Source: Bdellovibrionia bacterium
GTDB lineage: Bacteria; Bdellovibrionota; UBA1018
NCBI GenBank assembly: GCA_045805065.1
Contig: JBJMMA010000128.1
Location: forward strand, 1-10,126
DNA length: 10,126 nt
Direction: 5' to 3'
Every line of letters starts with the position of its first letter. The stretch's first letter is position 1. Under the pieces are notes generated by a model that was given only the letters and a program-made list of their open reading frames with translations, was not told the DNA's origin and searched no databases. Below, in pieces: positions 1 through 10,126 of this stretch. The position numbers were made by a program, and so were the translations under genes.

Positions 1-198
1 CATCTTGGATTGAATCGCCTTGAGACGCTCACCCAGCTCATGACAATTCGGGCGCGCTGGCTCAGGCTGAGTCGTTGCCGGAGGTGCCACTTCAGCAGGC
101 ATGACAGCATTGAAAAGCACGGTATTCAGCTCTTCAGCCTGCGCACCGACGGTGAAAAGTGACATCACGGCAACAATTGAAGCAACGATCAGTTTCAT
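1..198 (-). CDS. Hypothetical secreted protein, 5' part only (runs off the left edge)
   Basis: Hand translation from ATG at 198 gives MKLIVASIVAVMSLFTVGAQA-EELNTVLFNAVMPAEVAPPATTQPEPARPNCHELGERLKAIQSKM..., open to position 1. It has a Sec signal peptide (basic start, hydrophobic core, A-Q-A cleavage site) and a purine-rich GGGGGAAA just upstream on the - strand. Confidence 0.8.
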   Translation of the reverse strand, partial: MKLIVASIVAVMSLFTVGAQAEELNTVLFNAVMPAEVAPPATTQPEPARPNCHELGERLKAIQSKM

Positions 199-259
199 GG
201 ATTTCCCCCAATAGTTTAAAAGAGTTATAAAACCCCGACCCACCAGCCATATCACCTCG

Positions 260-283
260 TTCTGAAAATCCAAAACTTCAGAA
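260..283. promoter_or_regulatory. Inverted repeat TTCTGAA-N10-TTCAGAA, candidate transcription-factor site in a divergent promoter region
   Basis: Perfect 7-bp arms at 260-266 and 277-283, within the 156-bp gap between the secreted-protein gene and rlmE. Confidence 0.35.
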
Positions 284-354
284 AGATACAGTTTTTGGGG
301 CCGCCGCATTAAAGTTCAGTTGCATAACTCCCCGCGTCTTGAGAGAGACAGGCC

Positions 355-1865: not shown

Positions 1866-2498
1866 ATGACAAACGAAGCTCCAGGATCCGACAGGTCCGA
1901 CGCAACCAATGGAAATAACAAGGGTTTTAAGGGTACTTTTTTTAAGGCACTCGTTCCGTTGGTTGTCATTCTTGCCATTATTGTCGTTGGGCTTCAGCTG
2001 GTGAAGTACAAGCTGAACTCTGGCACGTCCGCTCGTCCGGAGGCGCAAGGTGACGTGGCCACTCTGAAAGAGGGCACCGTCCTGCCTGATTTTGATCTTC
2101 AGACCTTGGATGGAAAGAAACTCAAATATTCGGACCTTAAGGCAAAAGTAGTTCTTTTGAATTTTTGGGCAACCTGGTGCGAAGCCTGCGTCGTTGAGAT
2201 GCCTTCGATCGTGAAGCTCAATCAGATGTACAAAGATAAAGGTCTCACCGTGGTCGCAGTGAACCTCGATGAGAAACCTGAGGCTGTTGTTCCCAAGGCA
2301 GCCAAACAACTCAAGATCGATTTTCCAGTTTATGTCGACGCTGGTGGAAAGCTTGCTGATCTCTTTGATGTTCATGCCATTCCGCTGACGATCATTCTGA
2401 ATCAGGACCGCAAGGTTCTTTATGTCGAGGGCGGTGAACGCGACTGGACAGATTCAGAGATGAAGACAAAAATGGATGAATGGGTCAGTCAGAAGTAA
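1866..2498 (+). CDS. TlpA/ResA-family membrane-anchored thiol:disulfide oxidoreductase
   Basis: N-terminal TM helix (LVPLVVILAIIVVGLQLV), PDFDLQTLDG, LNFWATWCEACVVEMP (CxxC) and cis-Pro loop HAIPLT. The start is placed at ATG 1866 (AAGGTAGGA upstream) rather than TTG 1794, which would overlap the pilin gene. Confidence 0.92.
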   Translation: MTNEAPGSDRSDATNGNNKGFKGTFFKALVPLVVILAIIVVGLQLVKYKLNSGTSARPEAQGDVATLKEGTVLPDFDLQTLDGKKLKYSDLKAKVVLLNFWATWCEACVVEMPSIVKLNQMYKDKGLTVVAVNLDEKPEAVVPKAAKQLKIDFPVYVDAGGKLADLFDVHAIPLTIILNQDRKVLYVEGGERDWTDSEMKTKMDEWVSQK

Positions 2499-2509
2499 GC
2501 TCGGATAAA

Positions 2510-3214
2510 ATGAACGCAGACAAATTGGGCTCGGTGAGCCGACAAGATTCCGGGTTCTCGCTTCCTCTTTTTGTGACCCGCGAGAACAAGCTCCTGGTAG
2601 GAGCAGTGACCTTTGTAGTCGCCGGAGGCGTGTATCTCATTTCGAACCACTATCCTATTTTCGAGCCCAAGCTTCTTCCCATGACGGCCTGGGACCAGGC
2701 GATCCCATTCATTCCTCAAACCGTCTGGATCTATGTCAGTGAGTACATCTACTTCATCGTGATTTACGCACTTTGCCGCGAGACGCTGAATATGAACCGC
2801 TATGTCTATGCCGTTCTTGCAATCCAGTTCGTCAGCGTTGCCATCTTCTGGGCATGGCCAACGACATATCCAAGGCATCTCTTTCCGCTTCCGGACACGC
2901 TGGATTCATTGACCTACAAACTCTTTGCCTCTTTGCGTGAGGGCGATAGCCCGAACAACTGCGCTCCAAGCCTTCATGTGAGCAGCGTTCTTCTTTGCGC
3001 TTTTCTGTTTTTTAATGAGCAGCGCGAGAAGCTTTGGTTCTTTCTCACCTGGGGAGCCATGATCTCGCTCTCAACGCTGACAACCAAGCAACACTACATT
3101 GTGGATGTGGTCAGTGGATTGATGATGGCAATCCTCTTTCACTGGCTCTTTTATCGGCGTATTTCGTATCACGAACCCCGGACGACTGGCCATGCGACAA
3201 GCCCTGTTTCCTAA
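2510..3214 (+). CDS. PAP2-superfamily integral membrane protein, Aur1/inositol-phosphorylceramide-synthase-like (PAP2_3) subtype
   Basis: About six hydrophobic segments, C2-like NNCAPSLHV and C3-like STLTTKQHYIVDVVSG. The classical C1 Kx6RP motif is absent (WPTTYPR instead). ATG 2510 is preferred over 2480, which overlaps the tlpA-like gene; the start is uncertain. Confidence 0.85.
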   Translation: MNADKLGSVSRQDSGFSLPLFVTRENKLLVGAVTFVVAGGVYLISNHYPIFEPKLLPMTAWDQAIPFIPQTVWIYVSEYIYFIVIYALCRETLNMNRYVYAVLAIQFVSVAIFWAWPTTYPRHLFPLPDTLDSLTYKLFASLREGDSPNNCAPSLHVSSVLLCAFLFFNEQREKLWFFLTWGAMISLSTLTTKQHYIVDVVSGLMMAILFHWLFYRRISYHEPRTTGHATSPVS

Positions 3215-3215
3215 A

Positions 3216-3620
3216 ATGAGAATCAAGACCCTTGGCTTTGCTGTTTTAAGCTTAGCGGCTCTGGCATCCTGCACCACTGAAATGCTTTCCCCATCCGGAA
3301 TGCCGATCACTGCGCCGACCACTCGGCCTCAACCTCCGAAAGTAGATCCCATTACCATCCATGGCAAGCAATACGGCGGAGGCTTCAACCAGGGCGTGCT
3401 TCCGATCTCTGATGCAGCTTCAGGAAAGAAGATCAAAAACGTAACGATCTACAGTTATCCCGATAATGGAGAACAGGCCGTGTTCTTCAAGTCGATGAAG
3501 CTTGTGAACAATGATCAGGAGATCCTGATTGAAAACGAAGTCGGCGACAAGTTTCTCTTCAATATCAAGACTGAGAAAGTCAAACCGGCCAAAACCAATA
3601 AGGTCAAACCTACTCGTTAA
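3216..3620 (+). CDS. Hypothetical lipoprotein
   Basis: ATG 1 nt after the PAP2 stop gives MRIKTLGFAVLSLAA-LASC, a lipobox with Cys19. A Pro/Thr-rich tether precedes a beta-rich domain and a Lys-rich tail; 134 aa. Confidence 0.8.
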   Translation: MRIKTLGFAVLSLAALASCTTEMLSPSGMPITAPTTRPQPPKVDPITIHGKQYGGGFNQGVLPISDAASGKKIKNVTIYSYPDNGEQAVFFKSMKLVNNDQEILIENEVGDKFLFNIKTEKVKPAKTNKVKPTR

Positions 3621-3635
3621 CGAGCGTGACCGCTC
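3613..3635. terminator. Short hairpins between convergent genes, possible weak bidirectional terminator
   Basis: A perfect palindrome CTCGTTAACGAG (3613-3624) overlaps a GAGCG-TGAC-CGCTC stem-loop (3622-3635) at the 16-bp gap between the lipoprotein and hutI stops. There is no U-tract. Confidence 0.25.
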
Positions 3636-3636
3636 A

Positions 3637-4878
3637 TCAAGAAGCGTTTCCGCTCCATGCAAACCGGTAGTAGAGTTCTTCAAAGCGAGCAAAAGGCAGC
3701 ACGACAAAGTCGGCATCCATTCCTCGCGCAATCGTTCCCTTGCTGTGATGCAGATCCAGAGCCTTTGCCGCGTTGTAAGTTACGGCAGCAAAGATCTCAG
3801 CCCGCCTCATGCCCAGGTACAGTGCTGCAATCGTCATGATCGTAGGAAGGTTCAAAGTGACGCAGGTACCGGGATTGAAATCCGTTGATAACGCTACAGC
3901 TGCGCCTGCGTCGATGAGTTTACGGGCTGGGGCATGCGCTTCCTTAAGATAAAACGCAGTGCCGGGCAAAAGAACTGCGACAGTGTTCGAGCTCGCAAGC
4001 GCTGAAATCCCATCATCTGAAATCTTCAGAAGATGGTCCGCGGATAAGGCTCCAATCTCAGTGGCAAAGCGGGCGGATTCTGTATTGGCAAGCTCATCGG
4101 CATGCACTTTCACCTTGAGGCCAAGCTTTTTGGCCTGCCTTAAAAGCATGCGGCCTTCGTCCACCGTGTAGTAGCCGCGATCAATAAACACATCGCATGC
4201 GTCGGCAAGCTTTCTTCGCGCAACCTCTGGAAGCATGTCTTTCACAAGGCACTCAAGATAAGCCTCGCGTGGCATATCTTTTGGAAACGCATGCGCTCCA
4301 AGAAAAGTCGTCGAAAAGGTCATTTCAGGAAAACGCTTTTTCAAACGATTGGCGACTTCCAGAACCTTGAGCTCAGACTCAGCAGAAAGTCCGTAACCGC
4401 TTTTGATCTCAAGAGTGCGCACGCCATAGGACTTGGATTCTTGAACACGAGCAATCGCTAGCTTTTCAAGCTGAGCAGGCGTTGCTTCACGTGTGGCCTT
4501 AACGCTTGCAACGATTCCACCGCCCCGGGCTGCAATCTCTTCGTAAGTTGCGCCACCGCAACGCTCAGCAAACTCATCCGAGCGATCGCCTGCAAAAACG
4601 AGGTGCGTATGGCAATCGACAAGCCCTGGAATCACGGCTTGAGTGCCACGCAAATTTTTCTTACCGACTTTTGCGTACTTCTTGGGAAGATCCGATGTTT
4701 TTCCCACCCACTCGATGCGATCAGGGATCTCTTTTCCCCCGACCTTGCGAGTGCGGTACACAAGTGCGCCATCCTCGATGCGACCCAGATCATCTTCGAT
4801 GGGTCGGCGTCCGTCTTTATTGCGAACACCGACCCCGGTTAAGATCTCGCTGGCGTGAATGAGCGCTTTTAAAGCCAT
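3637..4878 (-). CDS. hutI: Imidazolonepropionase
   Basis: PGLVDCHTHLVFAG (HxH metal site), GATYEEIAARGGGI, EIKSGYGL, FLGAHAFP, KVHADEL, SADHL, LLPGT and STDFNPG. It lies 6 bp downstream of hutU. Confidence 0.97.
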   Translation of the reverse strand: MALKALIHASEILTGVGVRNKDGRRPIEDDLGRIEDGALVYRTRKVGGKEIPDRIEWVGKTSDLPKKYAKVGKKNLRGTQAVIPGLVDCHTHLVFAGDRSDEFAERCGGATYEEIAARGGGIVASVKATREATPAQLEKLAIARVQESKSYGVRTLEIKSGYGLSAESELKVLEVANRLKKRFPEMTFSTTFLGAHAFPKDMPREAYLECLVKDMLPEVARRKLADACDVFIDRGYYTVDEGRMLLRQAKKLGLKVKVHADELANTESARFATEIGALSADHLLKISDDGISALASSNTVAVLLPGTAFYLKEAHAPARKLIDAGAAVALSTDFNPGTCVTLNLPTIMTIAALYLGMRRAEIFAAVTYNAAKALDLHHSKGTIARGMDADFVVLPFARFEELYYRFAWSGNAS

Positions 4879-4884
4879 CTCTGC

Positions 4885-6555
4885 TTACCGAAGCATTGGG
4901 ATCTTGCCGCCGCGCTCTTCAAACGCGGTTTTGCCGATCTTTTGCGCGGTCTCATATCCTGCGTCAGCATGACGAACAATGCCCATGCCGCAATCGCTGT
5001 TGAGAACACGAGTCAGGCGCCAATCCGCGTCTGCTGTACCGTCGGCAACGACTACCATTCCCGAGTGGATTGAGTATCCGATACCCACACCGCCACCGTG
5101 ATGAAGGCTTGTCCAAGATGCACCGTTCACGGAGTTCACAAGAGCATTCAGGAGCGGCCAATCGGCAATCGCATCCGAACCATCCTTCATCGCTTCGGTC
5201 TCACGATTTGGAGATGCGACAGAACCGCAATCCAGATGGTCGCGACCGATGACGATTGGAGCCTTCACTTTGCCGGTTCTCACGAGCTCATTGAAGAGAA
5301 GGCCTGCCTTTTCGCGCTGGCCATAGCCCAGCCAGCAAATACGAGCAGGAAGTCCTTGGAACGCGATGCGCTTTTGAGCCATCGTGATCCAGCGATGAAG
5401 TCCCTGATCTTCCGGGAAGAGCTTAAGAAGCGCTTCGTCGGTCACGCGGATATCTTCTGGATCACCCGAGAGCGCAACCCAGCGGAACGGGCCACGTCCT
5501 TCGCAAAACTGTGGGCGAATGTAGGCAGGAACAAATCCTGGGAATTTAAACGCGTCACTCACACCGGCCTTAACAGCTTGAGCGCGAATATTGTTCCCGT
5601 AATCGAAGACATGCGAGCCAAGTTTTTGGAACCCAAGCATCGCTTGAACGTGCTGACCCATGCTGTCGATTGCTTTTTGGATATAAGCTTTAGGATCGCG
5701 GGTTCTCAAAAGCTCAGCTTGTTCCAACGACATGCCTGCTGGAACGTAGCCATTGAGCTCATCGTGCGCGCTCGTTTGATCTGTCACGAGATCAGGCTTG
5801 AAGCCCATTTCAAGAAGACGAGGGAAAACTTCAGCGGCGTTTCCGATGACGCCGATACTGACTGCTTTCTTTTCTTTCTTATATTTCTCAACGCGTTTGA
5901 GCGCGTCTTCAAGCGAGTCAGCGATCTCATCGAGATAGCGCGTCTCAATGCGGCGACGTGCGCGAAGTGGATCGATCTCCACGTTCAGAGATACAGCGCC
6001 TGCCATCGAGGCAGCCAGAGGTTGGGCGCCACCCATTCCGCCAAGGCCCGCGGTTAAGATCACGCGGCCTGCGAGATCTCCACCAAAGTGCTGGCGACCT
6101 GCTTCTGCAAAAGTCTCATAGGTACCTTGAACGATTCCCTGCGTGCCGATGTAAATCCAGGAACCCGCCGTCATCTGGCCATACATGATCAAGCCGCGAT
6201 CTTCGAGCTCGCGGAAGTAATCCCAGGTTGCCCATTTTGGAACCAAGTTGGAATTGGCAAGAAGAACCCGTGGTGCCAAAGGATGAGTCGGCATCACTGC
6301 AACTGGCTTTCCGCTTTGGATCAAGAGGGTTTGATCATCGCGAAGCTCCTTCAGAGTCGCCACGATCGCATCAAAGGATTCCCAATTGCGCGCGGCGCGG
6401 CCGTTTCCGCCATAGACAACGAGGTCCTCGGGGCGCTCTGCCACTTCCGGATCGAGGTTGTTCATGAGCATTCTTAGAGCAGCTTCTTGCTGCCAGCCTT
6501 TGCAACTCAGTTCAGTACCGCGCGCGGCGCGGACGGTGCGGGATTGGGATGTCAT
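4885..6555 (-). CDS. hutU: Urocanate hydratase (urocanase)
   Basis: [83 protein letters not shown] and HHGGGVGIG. The start is ATG 6555 (homolog-like N-terminus [13 protein letters not shown]) or ATG 6573 (SD-like GAGTGA 9 nt upstream). Confidence 0.98.
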
Positions 6556-6579
6556 ATGAAACCCATACAACATTTATCG

Positions 6580-6590
6580 AAGTCACTCAA
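6580..6590. repeat. 11-bp direct repeat AAGTCACTCAA, copy 1 (contains the sensor-kinase stop codon)
   Basis: Exact match to 8619-8629; the flanking bases differ on both sides. Confidence 0.85.
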
Positions 6591-7947
6591 CGCTTGCGGC
6601 CGAGAGATCCAGGACGACCCGACCTAGTTGCCCGTCGTTCAAAAACTGAGTATGCCAGCCAAAAACCTTGGAAATCGCGTCCACGGTGGCAAGCCCCAAA
6701 CCGTGGCTTTTCTTACTGGCAATCGGGCCTCGATTAAATGGCTGACCTAATCGAGCAAGAACCTCGGGCGGTACTCCACCTCCTCGGTCGATCACTTCAA
6801 TCCTAAGCCCGTTCAAAATCAGATCAATCGGTTCAGTCGAGGGCGAGTAGTTCAAGGAGTTCGAAATCAGATTGGCCAGAATAATTTCAAGATAAGCCAG
6901 ATTAACCGCCACCTTGGTCAAATCAGTGGGAGCCCCAAGTTCAAGCCGGATGCGGTTTGCCCCTCGGCTCTCAAAGCGGGAAACCGCCTTTTTCAGAACG
7001 GATTCCAATGTCACAACATGAATATTGTGGCGTGCGGGCGCTGCCTCGACCTCTGCCCAAAGCAAGAAAGCCGATACCGTTTCAGAAATGGATTGGATTT
7101 CTCGATCGATGGATGAGGCGACGGTGTCCTTGATGTCGCCTTTTCGTCGCGCCGCTTCGATCTCAGCTGAGATACCGGCCATGGGTGTCTTGAGTTCGTG
7201 CGCGAGATTGTACGACCAGACTCGAGAGATTTCATAGCCACGGTTCACACGTGTGACGAGCGCGTTCAACCCCTGCACCAGGCGATAGAACTCATCGCGC
7301 GATACTTCAGATTCCCGGTCAAGGTTACTTGCGCTGATCTGTGGAAGAACGGATGCGGACATCGACAAGAGCGCGATTTCATCCACCTTCTCCGACAGAC
7401 GTTGCAGAGGAGCCAGCAGGCTTTTCGCAAACGAAGCGGCAATGACCAAACCAATCGCAAGCAAGCCGATGATCTCAAGACAGTCCCGGACCGAAATGGC
7501 GGGATTGATCATCAAGCTTCGATTGAAGATCGCGCCCACTTCTAGAATTTTTCCGGGATACTTTTTCATCGGAAGGTTCAGCACACGAATGAAATCACCC
7601 GTCGTGTGATGAGTGACCCAGGGCGCGTGATAGTCAATTTCACTATAAGGGACGAGCTTTGCCGCTCCACTTTCAAAGAGGACGGGCCCGTTTACATCCC
7701 GAATGACAAAAAACTTTCCAATGCGATTATCTCCCAGGACTTGAGAGATCAGGGCGTCGGCCTTCTTTTCGTCTTTCAATGCGACTTCAACGAGACTCGA
7801 GGAAACGATCGCTTGTGCTGCCGAATCGATGTCGGCATCAAGCAGGCTCAAGCGCTCGCCATTGATGAAATAATTGTCCAACAGGGTCGCGCAGGTGGCG
7901 ACAATCAGAAGCAAAAGAGCAAGAAAGGCAAAGAGCCTAAGTCTCAA
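6583..7947 (-). CDS. Two-component sensor histidine kinase (2 TM, periplasmic domain, HAMP-like linker, HisKA, HATPase_c)
   Basis: TM1 at the N-terminus and TM2 IIGLLAIGLVIAASF. H-box LAHELKTPM, N-box NLISNSLNYS, G1 DRGGG, F-box QPFNRG, G2 GLGL. The TTG start has AGGG upstream and overlaps the regulator's 3' end by 11 nt. Confidence 0.93.
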   Translation of the reverse strand: MRLRLFAFLALLLLIVATCATLLDNYFINGERLSLLDADIDSAAQAIVSSSLVEVALKDEKKADALISQVLGDNRIGKFFVIRDVNGPVLFESGAAKLVPYSEIDYHAPWVTHHTTGDFIRVLNLPMKKYPGKILEVGAIFNRSLMINPAISVRDCLEIIGLLAIGLVIAASFAKSLLAPLQRLSEKVDEIALLSMSASVLPQISASNLDRESEVSRDEFYRLVQGLNALVTRVNRGYEISRVWSYNLAHELKTPMAGISAEIEAARRKGDIKDTVASSIDREIQSISETVSAFLLWAEVEAAPARHNIHVVTLESVLKKAVSRFESRGANRIRLELGAPTDLTKVAVNLAYLEIILANLISNSLNYSPSTEPIDLILNGLRIEVIDRGGGVPPEVLARLGQPFNRGPIASKKSHGLGLATVDAISKVFGWHTQFLNDGQLGRVVLDLSAASVE

Positions 7948-8614
7948 CGAAGTACCCTACGTTCTTTAGGTTTTTAAGCTTAATGGAGGATCCGCAAGCT
8001 TCAAGCCTGCGCCGAAGGTGCGTAAGAGTCGCTTCAACCACGTTGGATTCGATTGAAGCAGCATCCCCCCACACTACCGCAAGCAAGTCATCACGTCTGA
8101 GCACGCGCCCGGGCTCTTTCGTCAAAAGCTTGAGGAGCGCAAACTCCTTTTGAGGAAGCGCCTCCTCTTTGCCAGCGACTTGAATCGAATAGCGCTCGAG
8201 ATCGAGAACAGTGTTTCCAATCGTGCGATATTTCTCAGACGGCGCCTTGGCTCGTCGGGTGAGCGCCCGCACGCGAGCAATGAACTCCTGATTCAAAAAG
8301 GGCTTGCCGATGTAATCATCAACTCCCATATTCAAAAGCTCCGCGCGCTCAAGCGGCGTATTGATCGCGGAGAGAATCATGATCTGAGCATCAGGCCATT
8401 TCGAGCGAATCTCTCTGAGTTGATCCTTGGTATCGACTCGTCCCAGAAGCCGATCCAGAATGATCAGCGAAAACTGGTCTTTTTTGCCCAGAAGCGCTTC
8501 ACTGAGAGCCAGAGCGGAGTCCAACACATGGGTTCTCCAGCCTTCTTCCTGGAGAAGTTTGGCGACATGCTCGGCAATTTTTTCATCGTCTTCGACAATC
8601 AGGGCCTTTTGCAT
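7937..8614 (-). CDS. OmpR/PhoB-family DNA-binding response regulator
   Basis: Receiver motifs LIVEDD, phospho-Asp IILDR, ILSA and DDYIGKPF; winged helix KEFALLKLL, VWG, SNVVEATLTHLRRRL and VGY. ATG 8614 is preferred (GAGTGA 7 nt upstream); TTG 8629 is the alternative. Confidence 0.95.
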   Translation of the reverse strand: MQKALIVEDDEKIAEHVAKLLQEEGWRTHVLDSALALSEALLGKKDQFSLIILDRLLGRVDTKDQLREIRSKWPDAQIMILSAINTPLERAELLNMGVDDYIGKPFLNQEFIARVRALTRRAKAPSEKYRTIGNTVLDLERYSIQVAGKEEALPQKEFALLKLLTKEPGRVLRRDDLLAVVWGDAASIESNVVEATLTHLRRRLEACGSSIKLKNLKNVGYFVET

Positions 8615-8618
8615 CCTA

Positions 8619-8629
8619 AAGTCACTCAA
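8619..8629. repeat. 11-bp direct repeat AAGTCACTCAA, copy 2 (immediately upstream of the response regulator ATG)
   Basis: Exact match to 6580-6590. Confidence 0.85.
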
Positions 8630-8649
8630 GATTAAAAATTTTTTATCTT
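8628..8649. promoter_or_regulatory. 22-bp near-perfect AT-rich palindrome, candidate operator in a divergent promoter
   Basis: AAGATTAAAAATTTTTTATCTT has 10 of 11 arm positions complementary (single T/T mismatch at 8633/8644). It lies in the 76-bp gap between the regulator and synthase starts. Confidence 0.5.
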
Positions 8650-8690
8650 CGCTTCATTCTGAGAAGCAGCGGGCTTCGTACTCTTAATGG

Positions 8691-9953
8691 ATGAGAGAAT
8701 ACCTTGAGATCGCGGCTTGGCTAGAGCGAAATCCACATATTGCTCACGAAAGCCCCTTAGTTCAATCGCTTCCATCTCCTTCATTCAAAGCGGAAGGCCG
8801 TGAGATCGTCTCCTTCAGCACGAACAATTACCTCGCTTTGGCAACCAGTCCGCGCTTGATCGCGGCCGCCCGCTTTGGGCTCGAGAAATTCGGGGTTGGA
8901 AACTGCGAGTCCCGACTTTTGGGCGGAGATCTTGAGATCTATCGTACGGTCGAAAGCAAATTGGCAAAGATGAAGCGCAAGGACAGCTCCATTCTCTATG
9001 CCACGGGCTTTCTCACTAATCTGGGTGCACTCGCGGCGCTGGTCCGCTCACCGCAAATCTGCCGCGTATACGGCTTCAGGCCCTCCAGCCGCACCAAGTA
9101 CGCTTACTTCTCAGATGAACTCAATCATGTCAGCATTCGCGAAGGCATTCGCATGTCTGAAGCCGAGCGCTTCACCTATCGCCATCTGGATATGGATCAT
9201 CTGGAGAATAGCCTCAAGCGCTCGGACGCTCACTGCAAGATCATCGTAACGGATGGTGTCTTCAGCCAGGATGGCGACATCGCGCCTCTTCCTGAAATGA
9301 TGGCGCTTGCCGAAAAATATGATGCCTTCGTATATGTCGATGATGCTCACGGCACCGGCGTTCTTGGAAAGAACGGCGGAGGCATTTCTGAGCACTTCAA
9401 TTGCTATCATGAGCGCCTCATTCACATGGGCACTCTGAGTAAGGCTTATGGCGCAATCGGTGGCTTCGTTGCCGCCGATCATTACATTTGCGAAATCATG
9501 CGCCAGACGTCATCGGCCTATGGCTTTACATCCACTCTTCCGCCGGATCAGGCTTATGCCGTTTCTGAAGCCATCGACATGGTGACTGATGAGCCAGAGC
9601 GCAGGGCAAGTCTCTGGTCCAATCAGCGTCTTTTTGCTCGCCTCATCCAAGAAGCGGGCTTTGAGGTCGTCTCAACTGAAACGCCGATCATTCCGGTCAT
9701 TGTTGGCGATGAAACGGTCTGTGATAACTTCTCACGTTTTCTTTTTGAGAAGGGCTATCACGTGGATCCAGTGAAGTTCCCAGCTGTTGCCAAGGGCAAA
9801 TCGAGACTTCGCGTGATCCTCAATGCGCACCATCGCGAAGAACAGATCCGGGGCCTGGTTGCAGCCATGACCGAATACGTTCAGAAGCATGGCTATCGAG
9901 CCGCCCAACACTCAAGCACTGAGCAAGAGCGGCTCACAGCTGCATCGGTTTAA
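8691..9953 (+). CDS. PLP-dependent alpha-oxoamine synthase (BioF/Kbl/SPT/CqsA family, aminotransferase class II), substrate unknown
   Basis: FSTNNYLAL, SRLLGG, TGFLTN, SDELNH(146), TDGVFSxDGD, VDDAH(220), GTLSK(251, PLP lysine), TPIIPV, FPAV and SRLRV. No bio genes are in the window, so bioF is not assigned. Confidence 0.9.
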   Translation: MREYLEIAAWLERNPHIAHESPLVQSLPSPSFKAEGREIVSFSTNNYLALATSPRLIAAARFGLEKFGVGNCESRLLGGDLEIYRTVESKLAKMKRKDSSILYATGFLTNLGALAALVRSPQICRVYGFRPSSRTKYAYFSDELNHVSIREGIRMSEAERFTYRHLDMDHLENSLKRSDAHCKIIVTDGVFSQDGDIAPLPEMMALAEKYDAFVYVDDAHGTGVLGKNGGGISEHFNCYHERLIHMGTLSKAYGAIGGFVAADHYICEIMRQTSSAYGFTSTLPPDQAYAVSEAIDMVTDEPERRASLWSNQRLFARLIQEAGFEVVSTETPIIPVIVGDETVCDNFSRFLFEKGYHVDPVKFPAVAKGKSRLRVILNAHHREEQIRGLVAAMTEYVQKHGYRAAQHSSTEQERLTAASV

Positions 9954-10126
9954 GAAACGATTTCTTCGAGCGTACGAGACTCGATGAGCTTCTCAAGATA
10001 GATGAGGTCTTCGTGGTACGAGCGATCCACATCCGCCTTAGGAACTTTCTTGCGAATTGTGTGATGAAGCTTCTCAATTGTCTTTGAGCTTCTCAGCGGG
10101 CGCAGGAACTCAATGCCTTGAGCGCC
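9950..10126 (-). CDS. hutH: Histidine ammonia-lyase, C-terminal 58 aa only (gene starts beyond the right edge)
   Basis: Hand translation from 10126 gives GAQGIEFLRPLRSSKTIEKLHHTIRKKVPKADVDRSYHEDLIYLEKLIESRTLEEIVS*. This fits the HAL C-terminal pattern AQGxxFxxPLxSS...IRxxVP...DR...D, and it is on the same strand as hutU and hutI. Confidence 0.85.
   Translation of the reverse strand, partial: GAQGIEFLRPLRSSKTIEKLHHTIRKKVPKADVDRSYHEDLIYLEKLIESRTLEEIVS

Follow-up and report, generated by a model that had tools for sequence, protein, structure and literature searches.

The window analysed here, a stretch of 10,126 nt that makes up the entire contig C128 (JBJMMA010000128.1) of a Bdellovibrionia bacterium (assembly GCA_045805065.1; 4.22 Mb in 262 contigs, 94% complete), contains a response regulator, a sensor kinase and an alpha-oxoamine synthase (AOS) that are encoded head-to-head around a 76-nt spacer inside a histidine-catabolism (hut) gene cluster. 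Judged by their conservation in related genomes, the three genes are a genuine, conserved and self-contained unit, and the hut context is incidental. By alignment and phylogeny, the synthase belongs to a separate clade that spans several phyla and is marked by a 15-residue insertion. This enzyme clade is a more interesting lead than the idea of a signal synthase paired with its sensor, which had been put forward in a first-pass annotation of the window.

The best-supported mechanism, to which we give about an even chance, combines a two-component pair acting as a local controller with an orphan AOS that makes a probably long-chain amino-ketone. Under this mechanism, the regulator-kinase pair would be read from one side of the 76-nt control region and AOS from the other. 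Upon a periplasmic or envelope cue, the phosphorylated regulator would bind a conserved block in the spacer and, once bound, would set the expression of both the synthase and its own operon, in whichever direction this control runs. As for the synthase, it would join an amino acid and an acyl-thioester into an alpha-amino ketone, a product that, judging from more distant homologues, is probably long-chain, lipid-like and similar to a sphingoid base.

The three-gene unit and its insertion into hut

The gene list was built from an open reading frame (ORF) listing in combination with Pfam and NCBIfam scans. On the minus strand, a response regulator of the OmpR family (7937-8614; Response_reg and Trans_reg_C; 225 aa from a conserved ATG) is followed by a sensor histidine kinase (6583-7947; 454 aa; HAMP, HisKA and HATPase_c), the two genes overlapping by 11 nt at the kinase start. 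On the plus strand, AOS (8691-9953; 420 aa) matches PF00155 with an E-value of 6.5e-47. The ORF listing extends the regulator to a TTG at 8629; we use the ATG at 8614, which all three genomes with the unit have in common, as the boundary of the divergent spacer (8615-8690). The ORFs and this ATG confirm the earlier description of a pair and a synthase diverging from a 76-nt, palindrome-bearing spacer. The location between hutH and hutU was also correctly described: hutU occupies 4885-6573 (minus strand; NCBIfam score 949.9 bits, cut-off 375), and hutH is represented by its final 58 codons (9950-10126, minus strand), the remainder being contig C4:1-1323.

From their domain content, the regulator and kinase are identified as an OmpR-family two-component system. 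The kinase has two hydrophobic segments, and its order is a first transmembrane (TM) segment, a periplasmic stretch of about 130 aa, a second TM segment, and then HAMP, HisKA and HATPase_c; it is thus of the classical periplasmic-sensor type with an OmpR partner, as the first-pass annotation had stated. No named orthologue of either protein was found over an NCBIfam cut-off, the best matches being CreC for the kinase (92.6 bits, cut-off 356) and RppA (126.4, cut-off 250). Sensors of the PhoQ, CusS and 2CSK_N types are the look-alikes of the kinase in Atlas, and these serve as leads only.

To survey gene neighbourhoods, 80 homologous loci were fetched with 10-kb flanks, among which the divergent regulator-kinase pair is kept only in the two closest, L014 and L015. 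The arrangement is the same in both cases, with identities of 87% for AOS, 88% for the regulator and 75% for the kinase in L014 (genome G263), and of 77%, 63% and 46%, respectively, in L015 (genome G242). The unit is rare: AOS is found at E<=1e-110 in 3 of 301 sampled genomes of the phylum, the window's own included, and a kinase homologue at E<=1e-20 in 4 of 61 genomes of the family, three of which are the AOS holders. In the fourth, G310, which has no AOS orthologue, the kinase (38% identical) is paired with an OmpR regulator in different surroundings, near a LysE-type gene. Thus, the proposed linkage of AOS to this particular pair holds in the closest relatives, together with a conserved spacer element. 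As for the survey as a whole, the pair recurs in the two closest homologues, of which only L014 has hut genes beside it, and two-component genes in the wider clade stay at background level (see below).

The hut setting of L014 is identical to that of the window. In L015, the unit stands beside a CHASE3-GAF hybrid kinase and a GIY-YIG protein, with no adjoining hut genes; in the same genome, hutH, hutU and hutI are contiguous at another locus (L116), on a contig different from that of the unit. Among 25 other hutU loci of the family, hutH is directly upstream in 16, and the regulator, kinase or AOS is there in none. Since hutH is directly upstream of hutU in most of these loci and hutHUI is intact in G242, the hut setting reflects an insertion rather than a functional tie. 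The simplest history is that a 3.4-kb unit was inserted into the ancestral hutHUI operon in this genus, which leaves hutU-hutI behind the kinase as a by-product. The kinase stop lies 9 nt from the hutU start, so that co-transcription of hutU with the regulator and kinase is now probable. A tie to histidine catabolism, as had been suggested, is therefore not supported, given this insertion and the position of the G242 unit away from an intact hutHUI.

Some further observations concern the surroundings of the unit. In G242, the GIY-YIG nuclease-domain protein (L015:11274-12149) is directly beside AOS and is a possible trace of unit movement. On the other side, about 100 nt after the unit's kinase and on the same strand, is the hybrid kinase (L015:4971-7739; 922 aa; CHASE3-GAF-HisKA-HATPase-REC-Hpt), so that the unit may feed a longer phosphorelay there. 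A comparison of G242 with its congener G245 yielded no unit boundaries, the two genomes being too divergent and fragmented. In the window, AOS and hutH are convergent, and their stop codons overlap inside four bases (9950-9953); a minus-strand scan of 3400-10126 scored no terminator-like site. Because of these two features, hutH transcripts may continue antisense through AOS into the regulator, kinase and hutUI genes.

The control region

Alignment of the spacer among the three genomes reveals a conserved non-coding block of about 34 nt (8626-8659), the remaining spacer having diverged. The block consists of an AT-rich palindrome (8628-8649), in which 20 of 22 positions equal their own reverse complement, and then a CTTCGCTTCA tract. 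No second copy of the element exists in the 4.2-Mb genome, with up to 4 mismatches allowed for the 22-mer or up to 7 for the 34-mer. Since the block is unique in the genome, it fits a local operator or promoter for this gene pair alone; the spacer as a whole presumably holds both promoters and an operator. Promoter/terminator, Rfam and tRNA scans gave nothing above chance.

An exact 11-nt direct repeat (plus strand; 6580-6590 and 8619-8629) lies around the two-component genes and had been read as a sign that they may have arrived independently of the synthase. The repeat is indeed present exactly at 6580 and 8619, but it does not mark a separate insertion: it is absent from both related genomes (L014 and L015) and was judged to be at chance level, as exact 11-mer pairs are common in the window (29, compared with 11.4 +/- 3.9 in shuffled sequences). 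We therefore rejected it as an insertion mark. Separate arrival is also contradicted by the three genes themselves, which travel together.

The proximity of the kinase to hutU is in favour of an alternative in which adjacency is all that the genes share: the pair would control hutU-hutI or distant genes, and AOS would be a housekeeping or accessory enzyme, expressed independently from the same spacer. The pair in G310, which exists without an AOS orthologue, is consistent with this, as is the fact that 64 of the 80 clade loci have no two-component gene within 2.5 kb. However, the G242 pair keeps both AOS and the spacer block at a place where no hut genes adjoin it, the spacer motif is not repeated in the genome, and AOS and the kinase have a common, rare phyletic pattern. 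On balance, we consider this alternative unlikely.

Motifs and subfamily assignment of the synthase

Alignment places AOS in the alpha-oxoamine synthase superfamily (pyridoxal phosphate (PLP) fold type I, PF00155). All the catalytic motifs are intact (NNY, SDELNH, DDAHG, GTLSKA and SRLR), and the last four align with those of solved enzymes, namely the Thermus thermophilus synthase (ThAOS), serine palmitoyltransferase (SPT) and Kbl. The lysine motif GTLSKA (residues 247-252) had been contrasted with the CqsA-type SLAK. It is typical of the family, its counterparts in the alignment being TLSKA in ThAOS, GTFSKS in SPT and GTLGKA in Kbl. What does set AOS apart is an insertion of 15 residues (approximately 123-137) just before SDELNH, which ThAOS, SPT and Kbl do not have and which contains invariant residues when 30 homologues are aligned.

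AOS remains below the cut-off of every curated subfamily model that it was compared with: 359.5 bits for BioF (TIGR00858; cut-off 426.45), 359.2 for TIGR01825 (535.4), 345.8 and 298.8 for the Kbl models NF005394 and TIGR01822 (460 and 493), 301.6, 248.1 and 210.4 for three SPT models (640, 500 and 670), 272.6 for TIGR01821 (338.55), the model of 5-aminolevulinate synthase (ALAS), and 158.2 for the CqsA/LqsA model NF005526 (428). Among PDB entries, the best matches are Thermus BioF/Kbl-type structures (7poa/8s1y; 269.6 bits, E 4e-79, residues 20-391), with SPT second (3a2b; 226.8 bits), then Kbl, and CqsA weakest (93 bits).

In the 94%-complete genome, we found no bioB over its cut-off, no match of any kind to bioD, and no tdh, Kbl or BioF over the respective cut-offs, which extends to the genome the first-pass statement that biotin and threonine-catabolism genes are absent nearby. 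Because the cut-offs are missed, curated paralogues coexist with clade members in other genomes, bioB, bioD and tdh are not found, and a gene resembling glutamyl-tRNA reductase (GluTR) stands beside hemC and hemB, the roles of BioF, Kbl and ALAS appear unlikely for AOS. The ALAS role was raised when no GluTR passed its cut-off (at E<=1e-30, the enzyme is found in none of 41 family genomes) and was dropped in view of the GluTR_N gene beside hemC/hemB and the presence of hemB throughout the family: hemB is found in 34 of the 41 genomes, and AOS only in the 3 genomes that hold the unit. The region C252:9702-13199 (L172) includes the GluTR-like gene, whose product is short (327 aa) and has no more than a weak GluTR_N domain; the gene immediately precedes hemC, with hemB close by. 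With hemB widespread, AOS rare and a GluTR-like gene present, haem synthesis does not depend on AOS; the HemA of the family appears to be very divergent.

A separate clade in many phyla

A protein search with AOS gave thousands of matches, the best 120 of which are 57-94% identical to it and come from Rhodocyclales, Sulfuricella, Bradyrhizobium, Parvibaculum, Planctomycetota, Verrucomicrobiota, Gemmatimonadota and others; homologues P0008-P0011 are 65-71% identical. Clade members that are 53-65% identical are spread over soil and water bacteria of at least eight phyla. A maximum-likelihood tree was built by a quick search. In this tree, which also included four BioF references, Kbl, ALAS, CqsA-type and SPT-like references and the genome's own SPT-like paralogue, the 30 clade members group together on a long stem with an SH-like approximate likelihood ratio (SH-aLRT) support of 99, a value that applies to the clade grouping and not to the order among subfamilies or the sister group. 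The tree thus separates the clade from all these references and, in agreement with the curated cut-offs, supports the view that AOS is none of BioF, Kbl, ALAS, SPT and CqsA. In particular, the clade does not include a true CqsA-type enzyme (521.6 bits) that was placed in the tree; taken with the score of 158.2 against 428 and the two-TM kinase, this position bears out the first-pass view that the system is not a Cqs/Lqs orthologue. Note that no SPT reference over the curated cut-offs was found in 61 Alphaproteobacteria and 61 Bacteroidota genomes.

Ten other genomes that hold a clade member were searched for all AOS paralogues, most of which could be classified by curated cut-offs; a mis-called ORF (L136), L183, which has no match, and the weaker matches L186-L189 were left unclassified. 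Paralogues over the cut-off are present beside the clade member for BioF in 4/10 genomes, Kbl in 4/10, ALAS in 1/10 and the CqsA type in 1/10. Within the searches made, the enzyme clade appears to be uncharacterised, and no curated model names its members. Among the papers searched, none joined an oxoamine synthase with a histidine kinase. A metagenome scan for closer relatives of AOS returned only homologues of 43-61% identity on short contigs, and a plasmid search found no clade member, its sole match being a Bacillus Kbl (39%).

Ten of the best 120 homologues (P0050, P0073, P0076-P0078, P0080, P0085, P0108, P0111 and P0121; see also locus L086) carry a C-terminal DUF4118 membrane domain. 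DUF4118 is the membrane module of KdpD-type kinases, and a DUF4118-GAF kinase adjoins AOS in some Gemmatimonadota loci.

The genome encodes a second AOS at C182:21237-23653 (L013:7238-9654), 35% identical to that of the window. This paralogue scores best on the Bacteroidetes-type SPT model (SPT-CFB; 495 bits, cut-off 640), and a 378-aa protein with a GNAT-fold match starts 24 nt after it, making the locus a candidate pair of SPT and bacterial ceramide synthase (bCerS). On these matches, the paralogue is more likely to be a true SPT than the AOS of the window. Sphingolipids have been reported for Bacteriovorax, and the candidate pair is in line with this. According to an excerpt of PMC9386255, the SPT of Bacteriovorax groups with the Bacteroidetes type, in agreement with the C182 paralogue.

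Gene neighbours of the clade

Across several phyla, fatty-acyl genes abut AOS on the same strand in 22 of the 80 loci: a FabF-like ketosynthase in 13, an acyl carrier protein (ACP) in 6, an HpnA/3-beta-HSD-like reductase in 6, a short-chain dehydrogenase/reductase (SDR) whose best match is 3-ketodihydrosphingosine reductase in 3, and an acyl-CoA synthetase in 3. In Gemmatimonadota (L052, at about 5200-8900, L066, L068, L069 and others), ACP, FabF-like ketosynthase, AOS and HpnA/3-beta-HSD-like reductase form a run of overlapping or near-abutting genes, which looks like an undescribed pathway to a long-chain amino alcohol or amino lipid. No ceramide-synthase-like (GNAT/bCerS) gene was found in the 80 loci. 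With these fatty-acyl partners of the homologues, the product is more likely to be lipid-like than to be a diffusible signal. An SDR on contig C4 was considered as a partner reductase for the window AOS and set aside, since its identity to the SDRs adjoining AOS in other loci is only 28-30%.

Two-component genes occur within 2.5 kb of AOS in 16 of the 80 loci. In the 45 loci with full flanks, such genes are found in 11 at 0-2.5 kb, as against 3, 7 and 6 in three equally wide zones farther out, and five of these 11 loci belong to one Zoogloea-type lineage (Zoogloea/SZAS). When the five are counted as one lineage and the outer zones are considered, the apparent excess falls to background among these homologues, whose identity to AOS is at most 65%, and a family-wide link between AOS and kinases was therefore rejected. 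In addition, the kinases near clade members are of unrelated sensor designs: two-TM periplasmic, cytoplasmic PAS hybrid and DUF4118-GAF.

These data bear on the signal-and-sensor idea, in which AOS makes a diffusible autoinducer similar to an amino-ketone or alpha-hydroxyketone, the kinase detects this compound in the periplasm, and feedback by the regulator acts on the common spacer. Its positive support is linkage: the three genes form a tight and exclusive group around a dedicated control region, kinase genes lie near clade members in loci of several lineages, and the AOS family includes autoinducer synthases encoded next to their sensor kinases, as described in excerpts of PMC3376566. Against it are the low CqsA/LqsA score and CqsA being the weakest structural match, the zone counts given above, the unrelated designs of neighbouring sensors, which do not fit one conserved ligand-receptor pair, and the ACP, ketosynthase and reductase genes that are the conserved partners elsewhere. 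We regard this reading as rather improbable. A related reading, a compact and transferable make-and-sense circuit to which we give a slightly smaller chance still, would have a long-chain amino-ketone made by AOS, or a reduced or deaminated derivative of it, reach the periplasm or outer leaflet and be read by the PhoQ/CusS-like kinase domain, which would feed back on the palindromic region. If true, it would be a second, independently evolved design of AOS-based signalling, either between cells or of the envelope state, in the Bacteriovoracaceae. The wider clade, which covers Gemmatimonadota, Bradyrhizobium, Planctomycetota, Verrucomicrobiota and Rhodocyclales, would in that case produce an undescribed class of amino lipids.

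The remaining reading, a catabolic or central AOS (Kbl-like, ThAOS-like and promiscuous, or an ALAS) recruited with hut to amino-acid catabolism, is very unlikely: although AOS has its closest solved match in the Thermus BioF/Kbl-type enzyme (4e-79), the genome has no Kbl, BioF or tdh over the cut-off and the gene sits among hut genes, other members of the clade coexist with Kbl and with BioF, the hut position is a lineage-specific insertion, bioB and bioD were not found, and the hem genes of the family argue against an ALAS.

Assessment and significance

For the present, a local regulator next to its target enzyme makes a plausible, if ordinary, combination. Several points weigh against the mechanism of local control and a long-chain product. 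Regulators of the OmpR type usually bind direct repeats, and the most obvious conserved element of the spacer is a palindrome; moreover, scoring of the spacer gave no sigma-70-like promoter. The unit is present in only three genomes of one family, so that inherited synteny is not fully separable from selection for linkage. No fatty-acyl or reductase gene is beside AOS in the window, L014 or L015; the lipid context comes from homologues of only 53-63% identity and may not transfer. Finally, with the SPT-like C182 paralogue already present, a second sphingoid-type enzyme is not obviously needed.

Identification of the AOS product would provide a function for a well-conserved clade that has no name in curated models. 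Since its members are found in operons of ACP, ketosynthase, AOS and reductase in Gemmatimonadota and other phyla, the clade is likely to be where unrecognised amino lipids or sphingoid-like bases are made. For the study of its regulation, the Bacteriovoracaceae unit is the simplest handle, with one enzyme, one regulator pair and one putative, unique operator. The unit is also a clean example of how a small set of genes splits a catabolic operon and captures its distal genes.

Other genes in the window

The other genes were taken from the same ORF listing and Pfam/NCBIfam scans. On the plus strand are an rlmE-like gene (355-972), a RibD_C reductase (972-1628), a ResA-like thiol-disulfide oxidoreductase (1794-2498) and a PAP2 phosphatase (2480-3214), and on the minus strand, according to NCBIfam, is hutI (3637-4878). 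Two ORFs have no Pfam/NCBIfam match: one of 142 aa (3192-3620, plus strand), which shares 23 nt with the end of the PAP2 gene, and an open-ended one of 103 aa (1-309, minus strand).

Comparison with known systems

Among solved enzymes, ThAOS (7poa, 8s1y; TIGR01825) is the best match, and all its PLP-binding and catalytic motifs align with those of AOS. ThAOS is promiscuous for its substrates. It differs from AOS in lacking the 15-residue insertion, and AOS misses the TIGR01825 cut-off.

In its arrangement, the unit is similar to two-component pairs of the CusRS, BaeSR and CreBC type, which diverge from a single target. The likeness includes overlapping genes for an OmpR regulator and a HAMP-HisKA kinase, and divergence across a short spacer with a conserved element. 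The difference is that the presumed target in the window is a PLP enzyme, not a pump or envelope protein, and that neither protein has a curated orthologue.

The likeness to bacterial SPT comes from distant clade members in operons of ACP, ketosynthase, AOS and reductase, or of acyl-CoA synthetase and AOS, which recall the spt/acp/acs arrangement presented in an excerpt of PMC9386255. More generally, these neighbours resemble the logic of bacterial sphingolipid synthesis, namely SPT, ACP, synthetase and reductase, insofar as it is laid out in parts of PMC9386255 and PMC11334938. On the other hand, AOS misses three SPT cut-offs, and no bCerS-like GNAT gene is near the 80 loci.

Finally, CqsA/CqsS and LqsA/LqsS share with the unit the encoding of an AOS-family enzyme beside a sensor kinase (PMC3376566, in part). 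The sensors are built differently: CqsS has a six-TM anchor, as given in an excerpt of PMC4821796, whereas the window kinase has two TM segments with a periplasmic domain between them and is paired with an OmpR-type regulator.

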